The position numbers and the translations under genes were made by a program. This document shows positions 4,437 to 32,319 of a DNA stretch of 40,713 nt, piece by piece. Numbering within the stretch: the first letter of the stretch is position 1; the number at the start of each line of letters is the position of its first letter. Below the pieces are notes generated by a model that saw nothing but the letters and a program-made list of their open reading frames with translations, ran no database searches and had not been told where the DNA came from. Source of the DNA: a virus (taxonomy: Duplodnaviria; Heunggongvirae; Uroviricota; Caudoviricetes); IMG/VR virus record IMGVR_UViG_2671180360_000017. One strand, written 5' to 3'.

Positions 4437-5012
4437 TTACCTAACGTACTTAATTGTTAAACTTATAATTTTCCCAATTATTTCAACATCTTCTATCTTG
4501 CACTCGAAGGCTCTGTTTCCACCCTCGACGAAGATTCTTCCACCGGGTAAACGAGTAATGTCACGGATCGTTATTTCGCCATCAATACTTATTACCCATT
4601 TACCATCACGTATATCATCAAATTCCTTATCACAAATAAATTCAGAATTATTATCTGTGATTACAAAAAGATTCTTGAATGCCGACGGTAGAAATTCTCT
4701 ATCGAAAATATAAAAACCGTCTTCACACAAGGCCCCATCAGATAATACATATTTAGCAACTTCCATAGTATTTGTATTACCTGAAGTTTGCTTTGAACCA
4801 TGCCCGGTTGTGAGCCAATTAAGCGAGGTGCCTGTTTCAAGGGCGCACTGGATTACCCATTCTGCTGGGAATGAGTCACGCATGTAGCGTGTGGCGAGTG
4901 TACTTTTAGAGATTCCTAAATGATCGCACAACGCCTGTCGAGTCTTGAATCCATAAGCTTCTACCATGCGCTCTATAGCGCCTCGTCCGCCTTTCTCCAA
5001 ATTCATGGTCAC
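4437..5012 (-). CDS. cI: Immunity repressor, phage 186 CI-like
   Basis: 191 aa (186 CI is about 192 aa), N-terminal HTH region, divergent from the apl/cII operon, upstream of int. Confidence 0.75.
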   Translation of the reverse strand: MTMNLEKGGRGAIERMVEAYGFKTRQALCDHLGISKSTLATRYMRDSFPAEWVIQCALETGTSLNWLTTGHGSKQTSGNTNTMEVAKYVLSDGALCEDGFYIFDREFLPSAFKNLFVITDNNSEFICDKEFDDIRDGKWVISIDGEITIRDITRLPGGRIFVEGGNRAFECKIEDVEIIGKIISLTIKYVR

Positions 5013-5030
5013 TCCAAGTGAACTTTTATC

Positions 5031-10787: not shown

Positions 10788-10923
10788 TAGGTTTCGTTTG
10801 TAATGAGTCATGTTTTTTGAGTCCGATAGTAGACAGCTAGAGGGATAAATGATTAATAGATAGATTAAACATAGTGATGGGCGTAAAATCGCGCGCATTT
10901 TATTGGCAACGGATCTGAACTCA

Positions 10924-11817
10924 ATGGCGGATAAGACTCAATCAGTAAGTATTGTGTATCAAGGCAAAGCTCTCGACGATCATAAGATGGATATTCTTTC
11001 GTTTGCGAAAAGTTTGCAGGGGCTAGGTGAGGCTATCTACTCTGCAAATGAGATTGTAAACGGAGGGCGAGACATTGAAGTTAACGTTGACGCTGAATTG
11101 ATAGCCGGTTCCTTTGGGTTTGATATTGAGGTTGTACAACATCTAGCTAATGCTAAAGATGTTGTACAAATTTTAGGTTTGTCAGCCATTCCTTTAGCCG
11201 TTGGCGGTGCTACAGTTTTAGAGGTTCTCAAGAAGCTTAACGGGCGTAAGATCGACATAGTCGAGAAAGCTAACGGTAGTGACAAAGTTAAGCTGAAAGT
11301 CGATGGTGAAGAGATTGTTTGCTCTGAAGATGTCGAAAAAATCGTTAATGCCCCAGAGATTCGTAAGGCTGTTGACGCGTTTGTCAGACAGCCTCTGTTA
11401 CAAGATGGTATCGACAATTTTGTGGTAAAAAAATCGCGCACCTCTAAGAAAGAAATCCTCAAAATTCATAAAGATGAGGCAGAAGAGTTTAAGTCGCCAA
11501 AAGTTCTCTTTGAAACCAAAGAAGAAGTTGACGAATTTGAAACAACCGTGACATTCGTTTCGGCGCATACTGACAAAAAAAGTGGCTGGCGTGTTGAGTT
11601 TGGCGGTGAAAAGCGCAATGTCAGAATGGAAGATAATGAGTTCATCAAGCTTGTTACTGGACCAGACGCCCCCAAAATTTTTGGCGAATTGTTTGCTGTG
11701 AAGATGAAGAAAATTGTGAAAGATTCCGGTGGCCAGGTAGACGAAAAGTTATCGATCATCAAAGTGGGTCGACACTTTGCCGCCAAAGATAGAAAAATAA
11801 AACCTGATGCGGATTAA
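10924..11817 (+). CDS. Hypothetical soluble protein (297 aa from ATG 10924; 304 aa if the TTG at 10903 is used), first gene of the AT-rich cargo operon
   Basis: Long uninterrupted ORF in AT-rich DNA between dinI-like gene and the cos region; highly charged K/E/D-rich; no recognisable motif. Confidence 0.6.
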   Translation: MADKTQSVSIVYQGKALDDHKMDILSFAKSLQGLGEAIYSANEIVNGGRDIEVNVDAELIAGSFGFDIEVVQHLANAKDVVQILGLSAIPLAVGGATVLEVLKKLNGRKIDIVEKANGSDKVKLKVDGEEIVCSEDVEKIVNAPEIRKAVDAFVRQPLLQDGIDNFVVKKSRTSKKEILKIHKDEAEEFKSPKVLFETKEEVDEFETTVTFVSAHTDKKSGWRVEFGGEKRNVRMEDNEFIKLVTGPDAPKIFGELFAVKMKKIVKDSGGQVDEKLSIIKVGRHFAAKDRKIKPDAD

Positions 11818-12762: not shown

Positions 12763-14031
12763 ATGGAAATTTTTGATACGAATGATATCTTTGGGCTCTC
12801 AAGAGATTTGCCACTTAATTACATTGAAAGACCTGATGTTGATTTCAAACTTAAACAGGAATTACAAGCAAAGAAACATATTGTTATTTACGGCAGTTCA
12901 AAGCAGGGTAAGACTTGCGTAAGAAAACACTGTATTAATTCTGATGATTATATTTTGGTGCAGTGTTCGAATCGTTCTGATGTATCTGAATTGAATGCAA
13001 GTATTTTAAAAAGAGCTGGATTCGAAATAACTCAGTCTACCAAGAAAGGTATTACGGGGAAAAATAAAATAATCGCATCAATAAAAACTTCTATTTTGGG
13101 TTTTGTGGCGAGTGCCGGAGGCGAGATCGAAGATACGAAATCTCATGAACAAGTAACCGCGCCTTTAGAAATTGATGTTGATGATGTTAATGATGTTATA
13201 GCGGCTTTAAAATCTATAAATTTCAAGAAGATTATCGTTCTTGAGGATTTTCATTATATGCCTTTCGAAACTCAAAGAGATTTTTCGATCGCATTAAAAG
13301 CCTTTCATGAAACATCAAGCATTATTTTTGTAATTGTTGGAGTTTGGCTAGAAGATAATCGGCTCATTGTTTACAATGGTGACTTAACTGGCAGGATTAT
13401 TTCTGTTAACGCAGACAAATGGCAAGATTCTGAACTGGAGATGGCAATTGATAAAGGAGGTTTACTCCTTAACATTGATTTTGATCCAACTTTCAAAGCA
13501 GATGTAGTAACACACTGTCTCAATAGTATTTATTTAGTGCAAGAAGCATGTAGGCGTGCGTGTATTGAATGCGGAATATCAGAGACTCAGCAAACAAAAA
13601 GAACTATTGGAGCTGGTTTGGATGGAAAGGATATCATTGCAAAAATTGTTAATGACCAATCGGCTCGTTACAATTCTTTCCTTATTAATTTTTCAGATGG
13701 ATTTCAAGATACTGAACTTCAAATGCATAAATGGATTTTATATCCTGTCCTTTCATCAACCATTAGTGAACTTGAATTAGGTTTGAAATTTAAAGATATA
13801 AGGGCAATATTACAAAGTGTACATCCAAGAGGGGAGAAGTTAAACCTGGGTAATGTTACTCAGTCGTTACAATCAACGGCGTCTTTGCAAATAAAGAAAA
13901 ATATAATGCCTATTATTTTGGATTATGACCAAACAAATAGGAAACTGAATGTTGTTGATAAAGGCTTCCTAATATGGTTGCAACATCAAGATATCAAAGA
14001 TCTAAAGGATGATTTGGAGTTGCCAAATTAA
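12763..14031 (+). CDS. P-loop NTPase of unassigned family (422 aa), orphan cargo gene
   Basis: Walker A GSSKQGKT and Walker B-like IIVLEDFH; AT-rich; convergent with Q and separated from it by an inverted repeat. Confidence 0.7.
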   Translation: MEIFDTNDIFGLSRDLPLNYIERPDVDFKLKQELQAKKHIVIYGSSKQGKTCVRKHCINSDDYILVQCSNRSDVSELNASILKRAGFEITQSTKKGITGKNKIIASIKTSILGFVASAGGEIEDTKSHEQVTAPLEIDVDDVNDVIAALKSINFKKIIVLEDFHYMPFETQRDFSIALKAFHETSSIIFVIVGVWLEDNRLIVYNGDLTGRIISVNADKWQDSELEMAIDKGGLLLNIDFDPTFKADVVTHCLNSIYLVQEACRRACIECGISETQQTKRTIGAGLDGKDIIAKIVNDQSARYNSFLINFSDGFQDTELQMHKWILYPVLSSTISELELGLKFKDIRAILQSVHPRGEKLNLGNVTQSLQSTASLQIKKNIMPIILDYDQTNRKLNVVDKGFLIWLQHQDIKDLKDDLELPN

Positions 14032-22863: not shown

Positions 22864-24732
22864 TTAATTTTCAATGCTTTGCTTTAATTTATCTATTGCG
22901 GGAGTTAAACAATCATTTATGAGCTCATCGATTTGTAATGATAATATATTTGAGTTTATTTGAGTTTTCTTTTCAATTAGCTTTCTAATTAGCTCACGGT
23001 GGAAAAAACGCTCTGCAGAAAGCTCTTTTAGATAAGGGGAGTTGTTGTATCGGTTTTTTATAGCATAGCCAAAGAAATGCATCTCGGTTGAGTCTACCAG
23101 TATTTTTGTTAGTTGTTCAGCATCACCAAAATAAAGAACTGGTTTGTCGTGAAATGAATAAATATCTTTGTTGTTGAAATTTAGATGTGCGTAATATTCA
23201 TGATTTCCGGCCTGTATTAATTTGAATATCTTTTGAGCGTCTTGGCTAAGTTGATATGCAATTAACACATTTTTCTTTTGTTCTATGTAATTAACAAGCT
23301 CCTTGAATTCCCTAGTTTCTTTGCAATGAAAAGTTAATCCTCCCCATCGCTCATCCTTAATGTCTTCATCAAAAATTTCATAACTAGTTTGTATCATTCC
23401 TTTTTCTGCTAAAATATCAACAGCAGAGTGGGCTAAGTTTGTTAAATAGTGTTCGTTGATGGGTTTTATGTGTTCTCTGGATAAATGAAGTAATAATCCG
23501 TAAATATGCTTAAGAACATGCTCGTTCAATATTTCAAAATTAATAAGCGTATGAAGTGTTGAATTGTAATTTTCCTCAAATTCTGTGTATTTTAATCGAT
23601 CATAATTCCAAAGTTGTGTCCATGGCTCAATTGTTTTATTAGAAACACTGACAAATGTTATTAATTCAGATATTATTTTTTCTTGATTGATTTTCTGATT
23701 GTCAATTATATCGATCCAGGTATCCTCGTCTAAGATTAAATTTGACAAATAAGTTGTACCATATTTTTCAATTAAATTGGATGTGTATTTATTATCATCA
23801 TCTATTTTATATGTTAACAAGTCAGAAACGGTTCGTTTTATTTTATTAGATTCAAAATAGAGTATAAAATGTAATTGATATAATCTGAGTGTCAAATCTG
23901 AATTTTGCTGAAACTGTGCTGGTAATATTTTGAATATTCTTTCAAAAAAAGAAATTTGCCTTTCAATTAATCTAATGTTATTACACTCTGAAAGAGTGAG
24001 TAAGCTCTCAATATTTTTTATGTTCAGAATGGTGTTGAGTTCGCTAGTTATATTTTTTAGAAAATATTCGTAGGCGTGAGAATGTTGAGGTTGATATTTG
24101 AAAGTTATACCTATAACTTTTTCTTTTGCATCTAAATAAATACCATCATGATTTTTATTTCTAGCGGGGTTTAATATTTCTCTCTCATTGGCGATAATCA
24201 AAACCTTGCATTCTTTTTCTTCAACGAAATTATTTATATAACCAAATATAGAATTCCAATCTAATTCGCAGCGTTCAAGATCATCAAATATCAATATGGT
24301 GTTTTCTGGTGAGTAGTAAAAGTCTTTAATACTTACGTTGGGTAGTTCTGGGGAGCCCTCTACACTTGTAACGAATGAATCACTTAAATCAATCTTAAGT
24401 GTGCCTTTAATTAGTGCCTTAGTTAGTGTGCCAGCAAGCAACATGCCTTTAGATGAAAGGAAGGGATGCATTTGCTTGAAAATTATTTCGTCAATTTGTT
24501 CGGTGGATTTTATTCCATATAATGAGATCATTAATGGCTTAACTTCCCCTTTTAGTGATTCTTCATTCATTAATTTACGGACAAACCATGTTTTCCCGCT
24601 TCCCCATTCGCCGTCAATCATTACTGCGAAATTAGGGGATTTTTCAAGACCCACTAAATAATTAAGATATGAGGTTAGCTCTTCATTGTAATTCATTGGA
24701 TTGTAAGACCCTTCATACAATTTGAAAATCAC
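22864..24732 (-). CDS. KAP-family P-loop NTPase (622 aa), antisense cargo gene between S and V
   Basis: Walker A GEWGSGKT (KAP-type GxWGxGKT) and Walker B ILIFDDLE; strongly AT-rich; opposite strand to the flanking late genes; alternative start at Met 13 (24696). Confidence 0.75.
   Translation of the reverse strand: MIFKLYEGSYNPMNYNEELTSYLNYLVGLEKSPNFAVMIDGEWGSGKTWFVRKLMNEESLKGEVKPLMISLYGIKSTEQIDEIIFKQMHPFLSSKGMLLAGTLTKALIKGTLKIDLSDSFVTSVEGSPELPNVSIKDFYYSPENTILIFDDLERCELDWNSIFGYINNFVEEKECKVLIIANEREILNPARNKNHDGIYLDAKEKVIGITFKYQPQHSHAYEYFLKNITSELNTILNIKNIESLLTLSECNNIRLIERQISFFERIFKILPAQFQQNSDLTLRLYQLHFILYFESNKIKRTVSDLLTYKIDDDNKYTSNLIEKYGTTYLSNLILDEDTWIDIIDNQKINQEKIISELITFVSVSNKTIEPWTQLWNYDRLKYTEFEENYNSTLHTLINFEILNEHVLKHIYGLLLHLSREHIKPINEHYLTNLAHSAVDILAEKGMIQTSYEIFDEDIKDERWGGLTFHCKETREFKELVNYIEQKKNVLIAYQLSQDAQKIFKLIQAGNHEYYAHLNFNNKDIYSFHDKPVLYFGDAEQLTKILVDSTEMHFFGYAIKNRYNNSPYLKELSAERFFHRELIRKLIEKKTQINSNILSLQIDELINDCLTPAIDKLKQSIEN
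24702..24719. promoter_or_regulatory. Ogr-type late-promoter site (TGT-N12-ACA) for the V operon (P_V)
   Basis: tgtaagacccttcataca about 45 bp upstream of the V start; lies within the first codons of the KAP ORF if its first ATG is used. Confidence 0.45.
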
Positions 24733-26594: not shown

Positions 26595-27192
26595 TCTGCT
26601 GCCACCGGGTTCAACGCCACTGGAGCGCCGACTGGCGCAAACCTGCAGCGGGATTTCTGATTTGCAGGTGCCGCTGCGTGATCTGTGGGATCCGGCTACC
26701 TGTCCGGTCAGTTTCCTGCCTTATCTCGCCTGGGCGTTCTCTGTGGATCGATGGGACGAGGGCTGGACGGAAAGCGTCAAACGCCAGGTGGTGAAGGATG
26801 CTTTTTATATATATCAGCATAAAGGAACCACCAGTGCCGTGCGGCGGGTGGTGGAGCCGTTCGGCTTTCTGATCCGCATTATCGAGTGGTGGCAGACCGG
26901 AGAGACACCGGGCACGTTTCGCCTGGACATTGGTGTGCAGGACCAGGGCATCACTGAAGATACCTATCTGGAACTTGAGCGGCTGATAAGCGATGCCAAA
27001 CCATGTAGCCGTCACATGATCGGCATGTCCATCAATCTGCAGACCAGCGGCCCGCATTGGGTGGGGGCAGCCAGTTATCTTGGCGAAGAAATCACGATCT
27101 ATCCGTATATCAACGAAACAATTATTTCTGGCGGCACCGCGCATGAAGGCGGGGCAGTCCACGTTATTGACACAGTGAGAGTGAATCCATGA
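26587..27192 (+). CDS. I: Baseplate protein gpI
   Basis: 201 aa; synteny between J and H. Confidence 0.75.
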   Translation: MNSLLPPGSTPLERRLAQTCSGISDLQVPLRDLWDPATCPVSFLPYLAWAFSVDRWDEGWTESVKRQVVKDAFYIYQHKGTTSAVRRVVEPFGFLIRIIEWWQTGETPGTFRLDIGVQDQGITEDTYLELERLISDAKPCSRHMIGMSINLQTSGPHWVGAASYLGEEITIYPYINETIISGGTAHEGGAVHVIDTVRVNP

Positions 27193-28703
27193 GCACAAAA
27201 TTTTATACCCTGCTGACGGAGATTGGTGCGGCGAAACTTGCCAGCGCCACTGCACTTGGTGTGCCGCTTAAAATTACCCATATGGCGGTGGGGGATGGCG
27301 GTGGAGCATTGCCGACGCCGGACGCAAAGCAGACTGCACTGGTAAATGAGAAACGCCGGGCTGCGCTGAATATGCTCTATATCGACCCGCAGAACAGCAG
27401 TCAGATTATTGCTGAACAGGTGATCCCCGAAAACGAGGGCGGTTGGTGGATCCGTGAAGTGGGCCTGTTTGATGAATCAGGGGCATTGATTGCCGTCGGC
27501 AACTGCCCGGAAAGCTATAAGCCGCAACTGGCTGAAGGCAGCGGGCGCACCCAGACCGTGCGCATGGTGCTGATAACCAGCAGCACGGACAATATCACCC
27601 TGAAAATCGACCCTGCTGTAGTGCTGGCAACCCGCAAGTATGTGGATGACAAGGCACTGGAGCTGAAGGTGTATGTGGATGACCAAATGGCAAAACACCT
27701 TGCCGCAGCGGACCCACATTCACAGTATGCGCCAAAATCCAGCCCGACATTTACTGGAACCCCCAAAGCGCCAACGCCAGCGGAGGGGAATAACACCACG
27801 CAGATTGCGACCACCGCGTTTGTTCAGGCGGCACTGCTGGCCCTTATTAATGGTGCGCCAGCCACACTGGATACGCTGAAAGAAATTGCCGCTGCCATTA
27901 ATAATGACCCGAAATTCAGTACCACCATTAACAATGCGCTGGCACTGAAAGCGCCGCTGTCAAGTCCGGCACTCACCGGAACGCCAACAGCCCCCACTGC
28001 CGCACAGTCGGTTAACAATACACAGATTGCCACCACGGCTTTTGTGAAATCGGCAATTGCGGCAATGGTGGGGTCTGCACCTGCTGCACTGGATACACTG
28101 AACGAACTGGCTGCGGCGCTGGGGAATGACCCGAACTTTGCCACGACAATGCTTAATGCGCTGGCAGGTAAACAACCGCTGGACAATACGCTGACTAATT
28201 TGAGTGGAAAGGATGTAGCTGGTCTTCTCGCATACCTTGGTTTGGGAGAAGGTTCGGTGTTACCCGTTGGTGTGCCTGTTCCGTGGCCTGCAGCCACTCC
28301 GCCAACAGGCTGGCTGAAATGCAATGGTGCGGCTTTTTCTGCTGAAGAATACCCAGAACTGGCAAAGGCTTACCCGACAAATAAATTGCCTGATTTACGT
28401 GGTGAGTTTATGCGTGGCTGGGATGATGGAAGAGGCGTTGATAGTGGCAGGGGGATTCTCACTGCGCAATCTCATGGTATGCCGTCTATTTCAGGAACGT
28501 TTAATGGTCTTTTTGCTGTTAAACAAACAAATGGTTTAGGTGGTGTTTCTGTAGCAAAAAGTACAAATGCTGAAACTTTATCTACTTCATCTGGATCAGG
28601 TTCCGTGTTTGATTACACGTTTAATGTCAGCGGTTCGACTCCGGTATCACCAGAACTTCGTCCGCGTAATATTGCATTTAACTATATCGTGAGGGCCGCA
28701 TAA
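27189..28703 (+). CDS. H: Tail fibre protein gpH (constant N-terminal part plus variable C-terminus Hv1 as currently assembled)
   Basis: 504 aa; the C-terminal 150 aa after the crossover site show the Mu S / P1 S-type motif GWLKCNGAAFSAEEYPELAKAYPTNKLPDLRGEF. Confidence 0.85.
   Translation: MSTKFYTLLTEIGAAKLASATALGVPLKITHMAVGDGGGALPTPDAKQTALVNEKRRAALNMLYIDPQNSSQIIAEQVIPENEGGWWIREVGLFDESGALIAVGNCPESYKPQLAEGSGRTQTVRMVLITSSTDNITLKIDPAVVLATRKYVDDKALELKVYVDDQMAKHLAAADPHSQYAPKSSPTFTGTPKAPTPAEGNNTTQIATTAFVQAALLALINGAPATLDTLKEIAAAINNDPKFSTTINNALALKAPLSSPALTGTPTAPTAAQSVNNTQIATTAFVKSAIAAMVGSAPAALDTLNELAAALGNDPNFATTMLNALAGKQPLDNTLTNLSGKDVAGLLAYLGLGEGSVLPVGVPVPWPAATPPTGWLKCNGAAFSAEEYPELAKAYPTNKLPDLRGEFMRGWDDGRGVDSGRGILTAQSHGMPSISGTFNGLFAVKQTNGLGGVSVAKSTNAETLSTSSGSGSVFDYTFNVSGSTPVSPELRPRNIAFNYIVRAA
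28225..28250 (+). repeat. hix/gix-like 26 bp invertase crossover site A, inside H
   Basis: TTCTCGCATACC TT GGTTTGGGAGAA; imperfect dyad resembling hixL (TTCTTGAAAACCAAGGTTTTTGATAA); inverted-repeat identity starts at its central TT. Confidence 0.6.
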
Positions 28704-29305
28704 TGAATAATGCAGAATTAAATAGTGAATTGATTGCTACTGCGGCAGGGAATATTACCGTTTATAACTATGATTGTGAAACACGAGAATATATTTCCAC
28801 ATCAACTGAATATCTTGCTGTGGGTGTCGGTATCCCGGTATGTTCCTGTCTGGATACACCAGGTATACATAAGGCGGGTTATGCAATATGCCGCTCTGTG
28901 GATTTAAATTCATGGGAATATGTGCCAGACCATCGAGGTGAAATTGTCTATAGCACCGAAACGGGAGATACCAAAGAAATCACAGTGCCAGGCGACTATC
29001 CCGAAAATACAACCACTATCGCCCCGTTAACGCCATACGATAAATGGGATGGTGAGAAATGGGTGACCGATATTGAGGCACAGCATAGCGCCGCAGTAGA
29101 CGCGGCAGAAGCGCATCGCCAATCGCGGATTGATGCTGCAATGGCTTCCATCAGTCTGATTCAGCTGAAATTGCAGGCCGGACGTAAACTGACGCAGGCA
29201 GAAACAACCCGGCTTAACGCTGTGCTGGATTACATTGACGCGGTGGTGGCAACAGATACCAGCACCGCGCCGGATGTCATCTGGCCTGAACTACCGGAGG
29301 CGTAG
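28703..29305 (+). CDS. G: Tail fibre assembly protein (Tfa / gpG-like), copy 1
   Basis: 200 aa with the Tfa C-terminal motif DTSTAPDVIWPELP; immediately follows H. Confidence 0.8.
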   Translation: MNNAELNSELIATAAGNITVYNYDCETREYISTSTEYLAVGVGIPVCSCLDTPGIHKAGYAICRSVDLNSWEYVPDHRGEIVYSTETGDTKEITVPGDYPENTTTIAPLTPYDKWDGEKWVTDIEAQHSAAVDAAEAHRQSRIDAAMASISLIQLKLQAGRKLTQAETTRLNAVLDYIDAVVATDTSTAPDVIWPELPEA

Positions 29306-29738
29306 GCCATTCAATATCTGGAGCACTGGAAATATCGACCATTTCCAGTGCATCCAGATAATCCAGCCACAAATTATATTGTGCCAGTTCCTCACCTTTC
29401 AGACGACCGATAGCTGCTTTACCAGGCCATTGCTTACCGTTCATGTATTCGTTGGCATGGTCAATTCTCGACTTTTTCTCTGAGTCAGCCGCAGCAAGTT
29501 GTTCTTTATGCGTAGGTGACGGAAGATCTACCCAGCAAGGCAACCCATCATCACCAATGCCACGCATTTTACCCTCAGGAGCGTTTCCCATGAAAACCAG
29601 TGCATCTTCAGCATCTATATTGATGCCGTCTGACGGCCATGTGCCAGCAGTTAAATAATCATATTTCAGTGCCACAAGATAAAAAGCATTTTCCGTCGGG
29701 CTGAATACATAGTCGACCATTAATATCCCACCCCCCAT
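29277..29738 (-). CDS. Second-type tail fibre assembly protein (153 aa), inverted copy
   Basis: Tfa C-terminal motif DISSAPDIEWPTPP; identical to 30184-30645 on the other strand. Confidence 0.7.
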   Translation of the reverse strand: MGGGILMVDYVFSPTENAFYLVALKYDYLTAGTWPSDGINIDAEDALVFMGNAPEGKMRGIGDDGLPCWVDLPSPTHKEQLAAADSEKKSRIDHANEYMNGKQWPGKAAIGRLKGEELAQYNLWLDYLDALEMVDISSAPDIEWPTPPVVQAR

Positions 29739-29834
29739 ACTGCCACTGTTGAATTAGATTTCGTGTATGCGCAAGCGGCTTTGAATTTGACCCGGTCAAC
29801 AATCGCTGCGCTAACAAAAGGGGCTCCATTAGTC

Positions 29835-29860
29835 GCGTAGATCACATTGGTTTGGGAGAA
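29835..29860 (+). repeat. Crossover site B (conserved right half-site joined to non-consensus left flank)
   Basis: gcgtagatcaca TT GGTTTGGGAGAA; the right half is identical to site A, the left half is interior Hv2 sequence. Confidence 0.5.
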
Positions 29861-30202
29861 GCAGCGAAAATGCCTGCTGCGACAGCATTAGCCAGCAGTG
29901 CAGGTAACATCACTATTCCAGTATTAATTGGTGGAGTACAACGAACAGCATTGCTTCAGTGGAAGACGCTATCAGTGCCGCAATCTACCGACGGTAATAT
30001 GGTCGTTGTTGATGGCTCATGGCCGGTTGCCTTTCCTAATGCTTGCCTTTCCATCAATCCTTCGCTGGTAAATTCTGTGATCTACGCGACTAATGGAGCC
30101 CCTTTTGTTAGCGCAGCGATTGTTGACCGGGTCAAATTCAAAGCCGCTTGCGCATACACGAAATCTAATTCAACAGTGGCAGTATGGGGGGTGGGATATT
30201 AA
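29861..30202 (+). CDS. Promoterless alternative tail-fibre C-terminal cassette Hv2
   Basis: Frame is continuous with the LGLGE codons of the crossover site, so fusion to H constant would give a 111 aa alternative C-terminus; followed by its own tfa. Confidence 0.55.
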   Translation, partial: AAKMPAATALASSAGNITIPVLIGGVQRTALLQWKTLSVPQSTDGNMVVVDGSWPVAFPNACLSINPSLVNSVIYATNGAPFVSAAIVDRVKFKAACAYTKSNSTVAVWGVGY

Positions 30203-30645
30203 TGGTCGACTATGTATTCAGCCCGACGGAAAATGCTTTTTATCTTGTGGCACTGAAATATGATTATTTAACTGCTGGCACATGGCCGTCAGACGGCATC
30301 AATATAGATGCTGAAGATGCACTGGTTTTCATGGGAAACGCTCCTGAGGGTAAAATGCGTGGCATTGGTGATGATGGGTTGCCTTGCTGGGTAGATCTTC
30401 CGTCACCTACGCATAAAGAACAACTTGCTGCGGCTGACTCAGAGAAAAAGTCGAGAATTGACCATGCCAACGAATACATGAACGGTAAGCAATGGCCTGG
30501 TAAAGCAGCTATCGGTCGTCTGAAAGGTGAGGAACTGGCACAATATAATTTGTGGCTGGATTATCTGGATGCACTGGAAATGGTCGATATTTCCAGTGCT
30601 CCAGATATTGAATGGCCTACGCCTCCGGTAGTTCAGGCCAGATGA
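30184..30645 (+). CDS. Second-type tail fibre assembly protein (153 aa), partner of Hv2
   Basis: Tfa motif; overlaps the Hv2 stop. Confidence 0.7.
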   Translation: MGGGILMVDYVFSPTENAFYLVALKYDYLTAGTWPSDGINIDAEDALVFMGNAPEGKMRGIGDDGLPCWVDLPSPTHKEQLAAADSEKKSRIDHANEYMNGKQWPGKAAIGRLKGEELAQYNLWLDYLDALEMVDISSAPDIEWPTPPVVQAR

Positions 30646-31219
30646 CATCCGGCGCGGTGCTGGTATCTGTTGCCACCACCGCGTCAATGTAATCCAGCAC
30701 AGCGTTAAGCCGGGTTGTTTCTGCCTGCGTCAGTTTACGTCCGGCCTGCAATTTCAGCTGAATCAGACTGATGGAAGCCATTGCAGCATCAATCCGCGAT
30801 TGGCGATGCGCTTCTGCCGCGTCTACTGCGGCGCTATGCTGTGCCTCAATATCGGTCACCCATTTCTCACCATCCCATTTATCGTATGGCGTTAACGGGG
30901 CGATAGTGGTTGTATTTTCGGGATAGTCGCCTGGCACTGTGATTTCTTTGGTATCTCCCGTTTCGGTGCTATAGACAATTTCACCTCGATGGTCTGGCAC
31001 ATATTCCCATGAATTTAAATCCACAGAGCGGCATATTGCATAACCCGCCTTATGTATACCTGGTGTATCCAGACAGGAACATACCGGGATACCGACACCC
31101 ACAGCAAGATATTCAGTTGATGTGGAAATATATTCTCGTGTTTCACAATCATAGTTATAAACGGTAATATTCCCTGCCGCAGTAGCAATCAATTCACTAT
31201 TTAATTCTGCATTATTCAT
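30617..31219 (-). CDS. Tail fibre assembly protein (Tfa / gpG-like), copy 2 (inverted)
   Basis: Identical to the 28703-29305 product. Confidence 0.7.
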   Translation of the reverse strand: MNNAELNSELIATAAGNITVYNYDCETREYISTSTEYLAVGVGIPVCSCLDTPGIHKAGYAICRSVDLNSWEYVPDHRGEIVYSTETGDTKEITVPGDYPENTTTIAPLTPYDKWDGEKWVTDIEAQHSAAVDAAEAHRQSRIDAAMASISLIQLKLQAGRKLTQAETTRLNAVLDYIDAVVATDTSTAPDVIWPELPEA

Positions 31220-31671
31220 TATGCGGCCCTCACGATATAGTTAAATGCAATATTACGCGGACGAAGTTCTGGTGATACCGGAGTCGAACCGCTGACATTA
31301 AACGTGTAATCAAACACGGAACCTGATCCAGATGAAGTAGATAAAGTTTCAGCATTTGTACTTTTTGCTACAGAAACACCACCTAAACCATTTGTTTGTT
31401 TAACAGCAAAAAGACCATTAAACGTTCCTGAAATAGACGGCATACCATGAGATTGCGCAGTGAGAATCCCCCTGCCACTATCAACGCCTCTTCCATCATC
31501 CCAGCCACGCATAAACTCACCACGTAAATCAGGCAATTTATTTGTCGGGTAAGCCTTTGCCAGTTCTGGGTATTCTTCAGCAGAAAAAGCCGCACCATTG
31601 CATTTCAGCCAGCCTGTTGGCGGAGTGGCTGCAGGCCACGGAACAGGCACACCAACGGGTAACACCGAACC
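31219..31671 (-). CDS. Silent inverted copy of the Hv1 tail-fibre C-terminal cassette
   Basis: Identical to the H C-terminus; no constant part upstream. The ORF track extension to 31725 is read-through into unique DNA. Confidence 0.6.
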   Translation of the reverse strand, partial: GSVLPVGVPVPWPAATPPTGWLKCNGAAFSAEEYPELAKAYPTNKLPDLRGEFMRGWDDGRGVDSGRGILTAQSHGMPSISGTFNGLFAVKQTNGLGGVSVAKSTNAETLSTSSGSGSVFDYTFNVSGSTPVSPELRPRNIAFNYIVRAA

Positions 31672-31697
31672 TTCTCCCAAACCAACGTTTATGAAAA
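31672..31697 (-). repeat. Crossover site C (inverted relative to A and B), next to the invertase gene
   Basis: TTCTCCCAAACC AA CGTTTATGAAAA on the plus strand; inner half is the reverse complement of the site A right half. Confidence 0.6.
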
Positions 31698-31752: not shown

Positions 31753-32319
31753 ATGCTTATTGGCTATGTACGCGTGTCAACAAATGACCAGAACACCGAT
31801 TTGCAACGTAATGCACTGAACTGCGCGGGATGTGAGCGGATTTTTGAGGATAAAATCAGTGGCACTAAGTCCGACAGACCGGGGCTGAAAAAACTGCTCA
31901 GGACACTATCGGCAGGAGACACGCTGGTTGTCTGGAAGCTGGACAGGTTGGGGCGCAGTATGCGGCATCTTGTTACGCTGATAGAAGAGTTGCGTCAGCG
32001 TGGCGTGAATTTCCGAAGCCTGACTGACAGTATTGATACCAGCACCCCAATGGGCCGTTTCTTTTTTCATGTCATGGGGGCCCTGGCTGAAATGGAACGC
32101 GAACTGATAGTTGAACGTACCAGGGCAGGGCTGGCTGCAGCTCGTGCTAAAGGCAGAGTAGGTGGACGCCGTCCTAAGTTGACTACCGAACAGTGGGCAC
32201 AGATTGGGCGTTTACTCGAGGCCGGAGAATCAAGACAGCGTATTGCACTGATTTTTGATGTAGGCGTTTCTACCATTTATAGAAAATTTCCGGCAAATAA
32301 GAGCAATGAATCCCCCTGA
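31753..32319 (+). CDS. Serine DNA invertase (Hin/Gin/Cin/Pin family)
   Basis: Start at MLIGYVRVSTNDQ (catalytic Ser motif); very close to Salmonella Hin along the whole length including the C-terminal HTH; 188 aa. Confidence 0.85.
   Translation: MLIGYVRVSTNDQNTDLQRNALNCAGCERIFEDKISGTKSDRPGLKKLLRTLSAGDTLVVWKLDRLGRSMRHLVTLIEELRQRGVNFRSLTDSIDTSTPMGRFFFHVMGALAEMERELIVERTRAGLAAARAKGRVGGRRPKLTTEQWAQIGRLLEAGESRQRIALIFDVGVSTIYRKFPANKSNESP

Follow-up and report, generated by a model that had tools for sequence, protein, structure and literature searches.

The locus described here raises two questions: whether a short open reading frame (ORF) and the gene directly behind it form the silent half of a tail-fibre host-range switch, and why the DNA around them is present twice, as an inverted repeat. 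The window, by which we mean the whole 40,713-nt stretch that was analysed (IMG/VR record IMGVR_UViG_2671180360_000017), is a region of an E. coli chromosome. It has a porin gene and hchA at its left end and, to the right of these, a P2/186-like prophage with an integrase, a CI-type repressor, a Dam methylase, gpA and gpD. A preliminary description, made from the letters of the DNA, had proposed a host-range switch around the short tip Hv2 and its chaperone Tfa2, and contained no mention of the palindromic duplication around them.

The model that we propose is as follows. Positions 29849-30645 would be one of the two C-terminal cassettes, Hv2 with Tfa2, of an ordinary Gin/Hin-type switch in a P2/186-like E. 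coli prophage. The serine invertase encoded just downstream would recombine two inverted 26-bp sites, one in gene H and one before the invertase gene. Each 1851-nt flip would exchange the C-terminus that continues the constant 349 residues of H in frame: in one orientation this is Hv1 with Tfa1 behind it, in the other Hv2 with Tfa2 behind it, and receptor specificity would change with the tip. The features of the locus are collected in Table 1.

Table 1. Features of the tail-fibre locus and of the inverted repeat around it, in coordinates of the window.
Feature	Position	Strand	Description
Gene H as currently expressed	27189..28703	+	504 aa; constant part aa 1-349, Hv1 aa 350-504
Crossover site L, inside H	28225..28250	+	26 bp; TTCTCGCATACC TT GGTTTGGGAGAA
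Tfa1 copy 1, chaperone partner of Hv1	28703..29305	+	200 aa; PF02413 7e-31; phrog_105 2e-94
Tfa2 copy 1, left arm of the palindrome	29277..29720	-	147 aa; maximal ORF to 29738; reverse complement of 30202-30645
Dead Hv2 fragment	29720..29846	-	last 41 codons plus stop; reverse complement of 30076-30202
Hybrid site M, Hv2-proximal	29835..29860	+	GCGTAGATCACA TT GGTTTGGGAGAA; direct repeat of L
Unique centre of the palindrome	29847..30075	+	229 nt; central TT, inner half-site and N-terminal 75 codons of Hv2
Hv2, silent alternative tail-fibre C-terminus	29849..30202	+	117 aa from the site; predicted gp53-like/R-pyocin-foot-like tip
Tfa2 copy 2, partner of Hv2	30202..30645	+	147 aa; maximal ORF from 30184, 153 aa
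Tfa1 copy 2	30617..31219	-	exact reverse complement of 28703-29305
Hv1 copy 2, silent, adjoining the invertase	31219..31683	-	exact reverse complement of 28239-28703
Crossover site R, in front of the invertase	31672..31697	-	minus strand: TTTTCATAAACG TT GGTTTGGGAGAA
Gin/Hin-family serine DNA invertase	31753..32319	+	188 aa, intact
Predicted recombinational (Fis) enhancer, inside the invertase gene	31771..31842	+	predicted from position and homology

Hv2 and Tfa2 form an intact, silent tail-fibre cassette

The reading frame of Hv2 opens at the inner half-site GGTTTGGGAGAA (29849-29860) and runs intact to the stop codon at 30200-30202, which bears out the earlier claim of a silent alternative tip with an in-frame link to the crossover site. 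The length of 111 aa given for it was less exact: the ORF lies where it had been placed, but it counts 117 aa if read from the crossover site, 113 aa with 29861 as the start and 110 aa when the first ATG is used. Since the same frame has a stop 35 codons upstream and no ATG between, Hv2 is fused to nothing here and is silent as it stands. No promoter-like site was found upstream on the plus strand (29660-29850).

An internal ATG lies at 29870, and a 110-aa ORF is sometimes called there (L004; P0016), which could be taken to mean that Hv2 and Tfa2 are now expressed alone, as a free lectin-like protein with its chaperone and not as an exchangeable fibre end. The upstream stop, the absence of a start codon with upstream context and the empty promoter search all speak against this. 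The ORF also starts within the recombination site. All relatives share this arrangement, and in them Hv2 continues H. Of the explanations that we considered, independent expression is the least probable.

Hv2 scored 24.7 bits against PF21882 (Gp53-like_C), 0.2 under the cutoff of 24.9, and its close homologues carry a precomputed PF21882 match. It has no significant similarity to Hv1 (BLASTP E 3.5), as had been described. The best matches by both sequence and fold are the R-type pyocin foot and the AP22 gp53 tip (6cxb, 6cl5, 6ct8 and 4mtm). In the PDB sequence search the match was the R1 pyocin fibre 6cxb (E 0.06), and a Foldseek search with an AF2 model of moderate confidence (pLDDT 65) placed 6cxb first (3e-4), with 6cl5, 4mtm and 6ct8 also at the top. 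These proteins share the motif P(V/I)AFP(N/S)ACL with Hv2 and likewise have a tip that is paired with a downstream chaperone gene. They differ from it in overall sequence (only about 18% identity) and align with a TM of about 0.48, a value that comes from the medium-confidence model. The structure prediction of the tip that had been suggested as a check thus returned R1/R2 pyocin feet and AP22 gp53, tempered by that pLDDT and TM, and Hv2 looks like a predicted tip of the gp53/R-pyocin-foot type. In some E. coli genomes (proteins P0020-P0022) the Hv2 cassette is cut after ...DGSW or ...VAFP and continues into unrelated sequence, which suggests insertions or rearrangements inside the silent Hv2 copy.

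Tfa2 matched PF02413 (Caudo_TAP) at 2e-29, with 102.6 bits against a gathering cutoff of 22.1, and phrog_188 at 1e-55, and its gene lies directly downstream of its tip. Its start overlaps the stop codon of Hv2 as TAATG, and H and Tfa1 are coupled in the same manner at 28703. The dedicated chaperone partner that had been proposed for Hv2 is therefore present as a tail-fibre assembly protein coupled to the Hv2 stop. Its reported length of 153 aa corresponds to the maximal ORF (30184-30645), whereas the RefSeq relatives start with MVDYVF at 30202 and have 147 aa, and on this comparison 30202 is likely the start here as well. Tfa1 and Tfa2 are alike only at the C-terminus, also in agreement with the earlier claim; the alignment covers the C-terminal 80 residues with 35% identity (E 4e-12). 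Neither Tfa1 nor Tfa2 gave a match in a PDB sequence search. The two genes are convergent and their 3′ ends overlap by 29 nt. Across this overlap the C-terminal Tfa motif (LDYIDA/LDYLDA) forms a 23-nt imperfect inverted repeat (74%) at 29224-29246 and 29345-29367, with a mirror pair at 30555-30577 and 30676-30698.

Crossover sites and invertase

Gene H carries the P2-type tail-collar fibre N-terminus PF12571 (2e-65) and, at aa 361-408 and thus within Hv1, the Collar domain PF07484. Its 504-aa product has an identical copy on 7 public contigs. Site L, inside this ORF, fits the 26-bp invertase site pattern tabulated in PMC4134206. It is identical in a public draft genome that is referred to below as L005 (GCA_001284965.2), and one base of the outer half differs (TTCTCACATACC) in E. 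coli EC361 (L001), in TUM13936 (L002) and in L008 and L009. Site R is identical in L001, L002 and L005. The two sites have inverted orientation, a shared TT centre and an identical inner half. The 14-mer TTGGTTTGGGAGAA has exactly three copies in the window, at 28237 (+), 29847 (+) and 31672 (-); a search that tolerates two mismatches would by chance still yield only about 0.36 matches.

The constant part of H was joined in silico to Hv2 at the central TT, and this gave a 467-aa ORF that agrees with the H protein of EC361 at 454 of 467 positions and is identical to it over the whole Hv2 part. The crossover therefore lies inside the fibre ORF and swaps in-frame C-termini, each of which is then followed by a PF02413 gene.

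The invertase encoded beside the segment is a small serine recombinase with an N-terminal resolvase domain (PF00239, 2e-53) and a C-terminal helix-turn-helix (PF02796, 1e-15). It also matched phrog_125 (9e-101) and, over residues 1-184, the structures of Mu Gin (3uj3/4m6f, 8e-93). The combination of a Hin-like invertase with a P2-type fibre gene, as it had been put earlier, is accordingly borne out by a Gin-like serine invertase (3uj3) next to an H gene with PF12571. The interval of the predicted enhancer aligns with the annotated P1 cin enhancer (nt 19-90 of cin). Identity to cin is 56/72 (78%) in this interval versus 79/118 (67%) downstream, a difference for which coding constraint could account. 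In L001 and L002 the invertase gene (4455-5022) is annotated as frameshifted, yet the two strains have opposite orientations. Either the inversion is older than the frameshift or another invertase acted in trans, as was suggested for the EC958 prophage Phi4 by Forde et al. (PMC4134206).

The segment occurs in both orientations in relatives

Relatives of the prophage have one 1851-nt invertible segment between sites L and R, and in all relatives inspected there are exactly two crossover sites. The Hv2/Tfa2 cassette is 99.6-99.8% identical, at the DNA level, to that in dozens of E. coli genomes. In the annotation of the best 25 E. coli matches, 12 include the cassette in a tail protein and 13 list it as an ORF of its own. 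EC361 carries it fused to H, and in TUM13936 it lies silent, in the opposite orientation of the same element. A second pair consists of the sibling wastewater isolates SW071619 and SW071611, whose genome lengths differ by 2 bp. At this locus the inversion is their only difference: the flanks agree at 100% of positions, and the 1878 nt between the two 26-bp sites form an exactly inverted segment. Both orientations are thus found in relatives twice over, in EC361 versus TUM13936 and in SW071619 versus SW071611.

Judged from these sequences, the host-range-switch reading of the preliminary description is right in kind, and the two tips presumably recognise different receptors. Its comparison with the Mu G and P1 C switches holds for the parts, the frame and the inversion in relatives. 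It does not extend to the arrangement in the window, where M repeats L in direct orientation and part of the segment is present twice.

The cassette could also be a decaying remnant that has no working tip, in a locus that only resembles a switch. The silent copy is annotated merely as a hypothetical protein, and some genomes have the cassette truncated or interrupted by an IS (P0020-P0022). Against this, the intact, in-frame ORF shows 100% identity to the tip of an H protein annotated at full length, and roughly half of the best-matching genomes have it fused to H. The Hv2 protein also keeps 67-97% identity across five enterobacterial genera (Escherichia, Salmonella, Enterobacter, Citrobacter and Cronobacter). 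We therefore regard decay as highly improbable, if slightly less so than independent expression.

A perfect inverted repeat surrounds the cassette

A perfect inverted repeat of 1610 nt (28237-29846 versus 30076-31685, with the arms identical at 1610 of 1610 positions) is the reason why Tfa2, Tfa1 and Hv1 each occur twice and why a dead Hv2 fragment is present. Read from site L, orientation A of the segment comes first; it covers 1610 nt (28237-29846) and breaks off 229 nt before the segment end. After the joint, the entire segment follows in orientation B (29847-31697), and then the invertase. The outer junctions are of the normal A type on the left and of the normal B type on the right, which would imply that both orientations were present in the source culture and that inversion occurred in the lineage. 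The palindrome does not extend into the flanks, which are the constant part of H on the left and the invertase on the right, both colinear with L005.

The novel joint between 29846 and 29847 falls directly before the central TT of the Hv2 site M, one position out of 1851. Up to 29846 the dead Hv2 fragment is colinear with L002 and L005, and there it breaks at the joint. Site M is a hybrid in which the centre and the inner half are canonical and the outer half is Hv2-internal sequence. This outer half agrees with each of the three genuine half-sites at 3-4 of 12 positions. Ranked among every 12-mer of the window it stands at the 59th percentile, a similarity at chance level. The parental sequence at the left breakpoint reads GCGTAGATCACA GA ATTTACCAGCGA, with GA and not TT at its centre.

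No mismatch separates the public draft L005 from the window, either across 8658 and 4643 nt of the two flanks or within the segment, of which L005 nevertheless has a single copy. A 34-mer across the joint was absent from the GTDB representative genomes (185,579 species), from IMG/VR and from the JGI metagenomes, and an 80-nt query across it had no full-length match in 5426 complete E. coli genomes. For the ORFs that are specific to this arrangement (a 116-aa Hv2 from TTG and a 168-aa silent Hv1), a search by exact sequence returned no record.

Origin of the duplication

The 1610-nt inverted partial copy is best explained, with a probability that we put at roughly 0.6, as an assembly artefact of a mixed-orientation culture. 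In a culture that held both orientations, a contig of one orientation would have been joined end to end with a contig, or a piece of a read, from the other, with the trimming falling exactly where both orientations stop aligning, and the true locus would be a plain two-cassette switch. An artefact is favoured because L005, which is otherwise identical, carries one copy of the segment, and because the arms are identical throughout and the joint is absent from all collections searched. The right breakpoint is the end of the alignment between the orientations and so a natural trimming point for alignment-based assemblers; trimming or splitting of reads on the basis of overlaps would cut where the orientations stop aligning. 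Forde et al. explicitly warned of artefactual duplications in phage regions when PacBio contigs of alternative orientation are merged (PMC4134206). Three findings count against an artefact. The joint lies exactly at the staggered-cut dinucleotide, as a recombinase-related event would also leave it; no obvious computational cause accounts for a left breakpoint that lies 229 nt before the end of the segment; and the remainder of the window contains no error relative to L005, which speaks for a high quality of the assembly elsewhere.

The duplication may instead be real, which we consider possible but doubtful. The interior of the reversed Hv2 on a sister chromosome in orientation A would then have been joined, by a rare illegitimate exchange, to site L, cleaved or synapsed by the invertase, on the other chromosome in orientation B. 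As a fresh, invertase-associated rearrangement, this would have converted a switch with two sites and two states into a locus with three sites, L (forward), M (forward) and R (reverse). A joint that hits the central TT out of 1851 positions is consistent with such an event, as are the intact invertase and the combination of A-type and B-type outer junctions. Hin-family invertases strongly favour intramolecular inversion, which counts against it, and so do the chance-level similarity of the partner sequence, the GA centre that cannot pair with TT, and a structure that is unique among the collections searched and absent from an identical prophage. In its favour, P2-like shufflons with three sites and four variants exist (PMC4272514), and Cin quasi-sites are documented in a study cited as reference 50 in PMC4134206.

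Several other routes to the joint were considered and rejected. Canonical serine-recombinase exchange at a quasi-site is implausible, since the parent of the left breakpoint is no crossover site, with a half-site match of 3-4/12 (59th percentile) and a GA centre. Template switching would need microhomology beside the site, and the 3′ end (...GATCACA) offers none that is usable, a lack that also weighs against a real duplication. A fold-back or a hairpin read with a missed adapter would have made the flanks palindromic too. In a random ligation or an amplification chimera, the right breakpoint would coincide with the segment boundary to the base in about 1 of 1851 cases. A conserved natural three-site architecture was rejected because only two sites are present in all relatives inspected.

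Consequences for tip exchange

No single inversion can express Hv2 from the locus as written, because M is a direct repeat of L and has an outer half at chance level. On paper, inversion between L and R, or RecA recombination between the arms, would flip only the 229-nt centre, and H would keep Hv1. Hv2 would reach H in two steps, either by L × R followed by L × M or by M × R followed by L × R. Were the duplication real and the hybrid site M usable, even weakly, these steps would belong to a cycle of four states, with Hv2 expressed in one of them. If M were unusable, the fibre would be locked on Hv1 and Hv2 would be permanently silent.

The closest published counterpart of such a cycle is the shufflon of a P2-like prophage in EPEC E2348/69, with three crossover repeats and four variants (PMC4272514). 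Provided that M works, the two would be alike in having four states, each of which can be reached from two others. They differ in that the EPEC shufflon has three different C-termini, whereas in the window chance sequence makes up half of the third site and the extra DNA duplicates what is already there. The locus does not classify as a multi-site shufflon of the p15B Min type or of the EPEC three-repeat type, which comprises at least three competent sites that serve different cassettes; here, M has only one recognisable half-site, and the extra DNA is an exact duplicate that brings no new cassette.

Comparison with known switches

Neither the kind of switch nor its cassette is new: the mechanism is textbook knowledge, and the cassette itself occurs in many E. 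coli genomes. What sets the locus apart is solely the palindromic partial duplication. The locus resembles the G segment of Mu and its invertase Gin (S-U versus S'-U') in having a Gin-type invertase, a 26-bp site in the fibre gene and two mirror-image cassettes, each of which consists of a variable C-terminus with its own Tfa-type chaperone. It differs from Mu in belonging to a P2/186-like prophage, in the P2-H-like constant part (PF12571), in tips that are unrelated to Mu S and S', and in the partial duplication of the segment in this window. With the C segment of P1 and its invertase Cin it shares the logic of the switch, an invertase gene that aligns with cin including the annotated enhancer interval, and long inverted repeats inside the invertible region. 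The P1 C repeats are about 0.6 kb long and flank a large unique part with two different cassettes. In contrast, the perfect arms in the window measure 1.6 kb and include both cassettes, and the unique part between them is only 229 nt.

Tail-fibre allele switching that is driven by an invertase at 26-bp sites has been published for E. coli prophages (PMC4134206), and inversion in P2-like prophages has been verified by PCR (PMC4272514). In E. coli EC958, the prophages Phi1, Phi2 and Phi4 have invertible fibre segments of 2-3 kb, with both orientations in one culture (PMC4134206). The Phi2 sites, TCCTCAATTACC TT GGTTTAGGAGAA and GAGAGATAAACG TT GGTTTGGGGGAA (PMC4134206), closely resemble L and R of the window. 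The EC958 prophages differ from the window in their cassettes, and there the alternative orientation was kept as separate contigs (PMC4134206).

Silent fibre ends are routinely labelled 'hypothetical protein', and the value of the present case lies in annotation and quality control. Active invertases give rise to cultures of mixed orientation and can leave duplicated palindromic mis-joins in finished genomes, and a mis-join of this kind would mislead predictions of host range or prophage completeness. If the duplication were true, it would be a small, concrete case of an invertase switch that was locked or expanded by one aberrant event, and a snapshot of how multi-site phage shufflons might arise through cassette duplication.

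Other genes of the prophage

Three further ORFs of the prophage matched candidate models for defence systems in PADLOC. A KAP-family P-loop NTPase of 622 aa (22864-24732, minus strand) lies between the tail gene S and the baseplate gene V and matched the defence-candidate model PDC-S49 (4e-135). Two cargo ORFs are located downstream of the replication gene A on the plus strand; the one at 10903-11817 matched PDC-S42 (8e-44), and the one at 12763-14031 matched PDC-S59 (5e-72) and showed a weak match to AAA_22.
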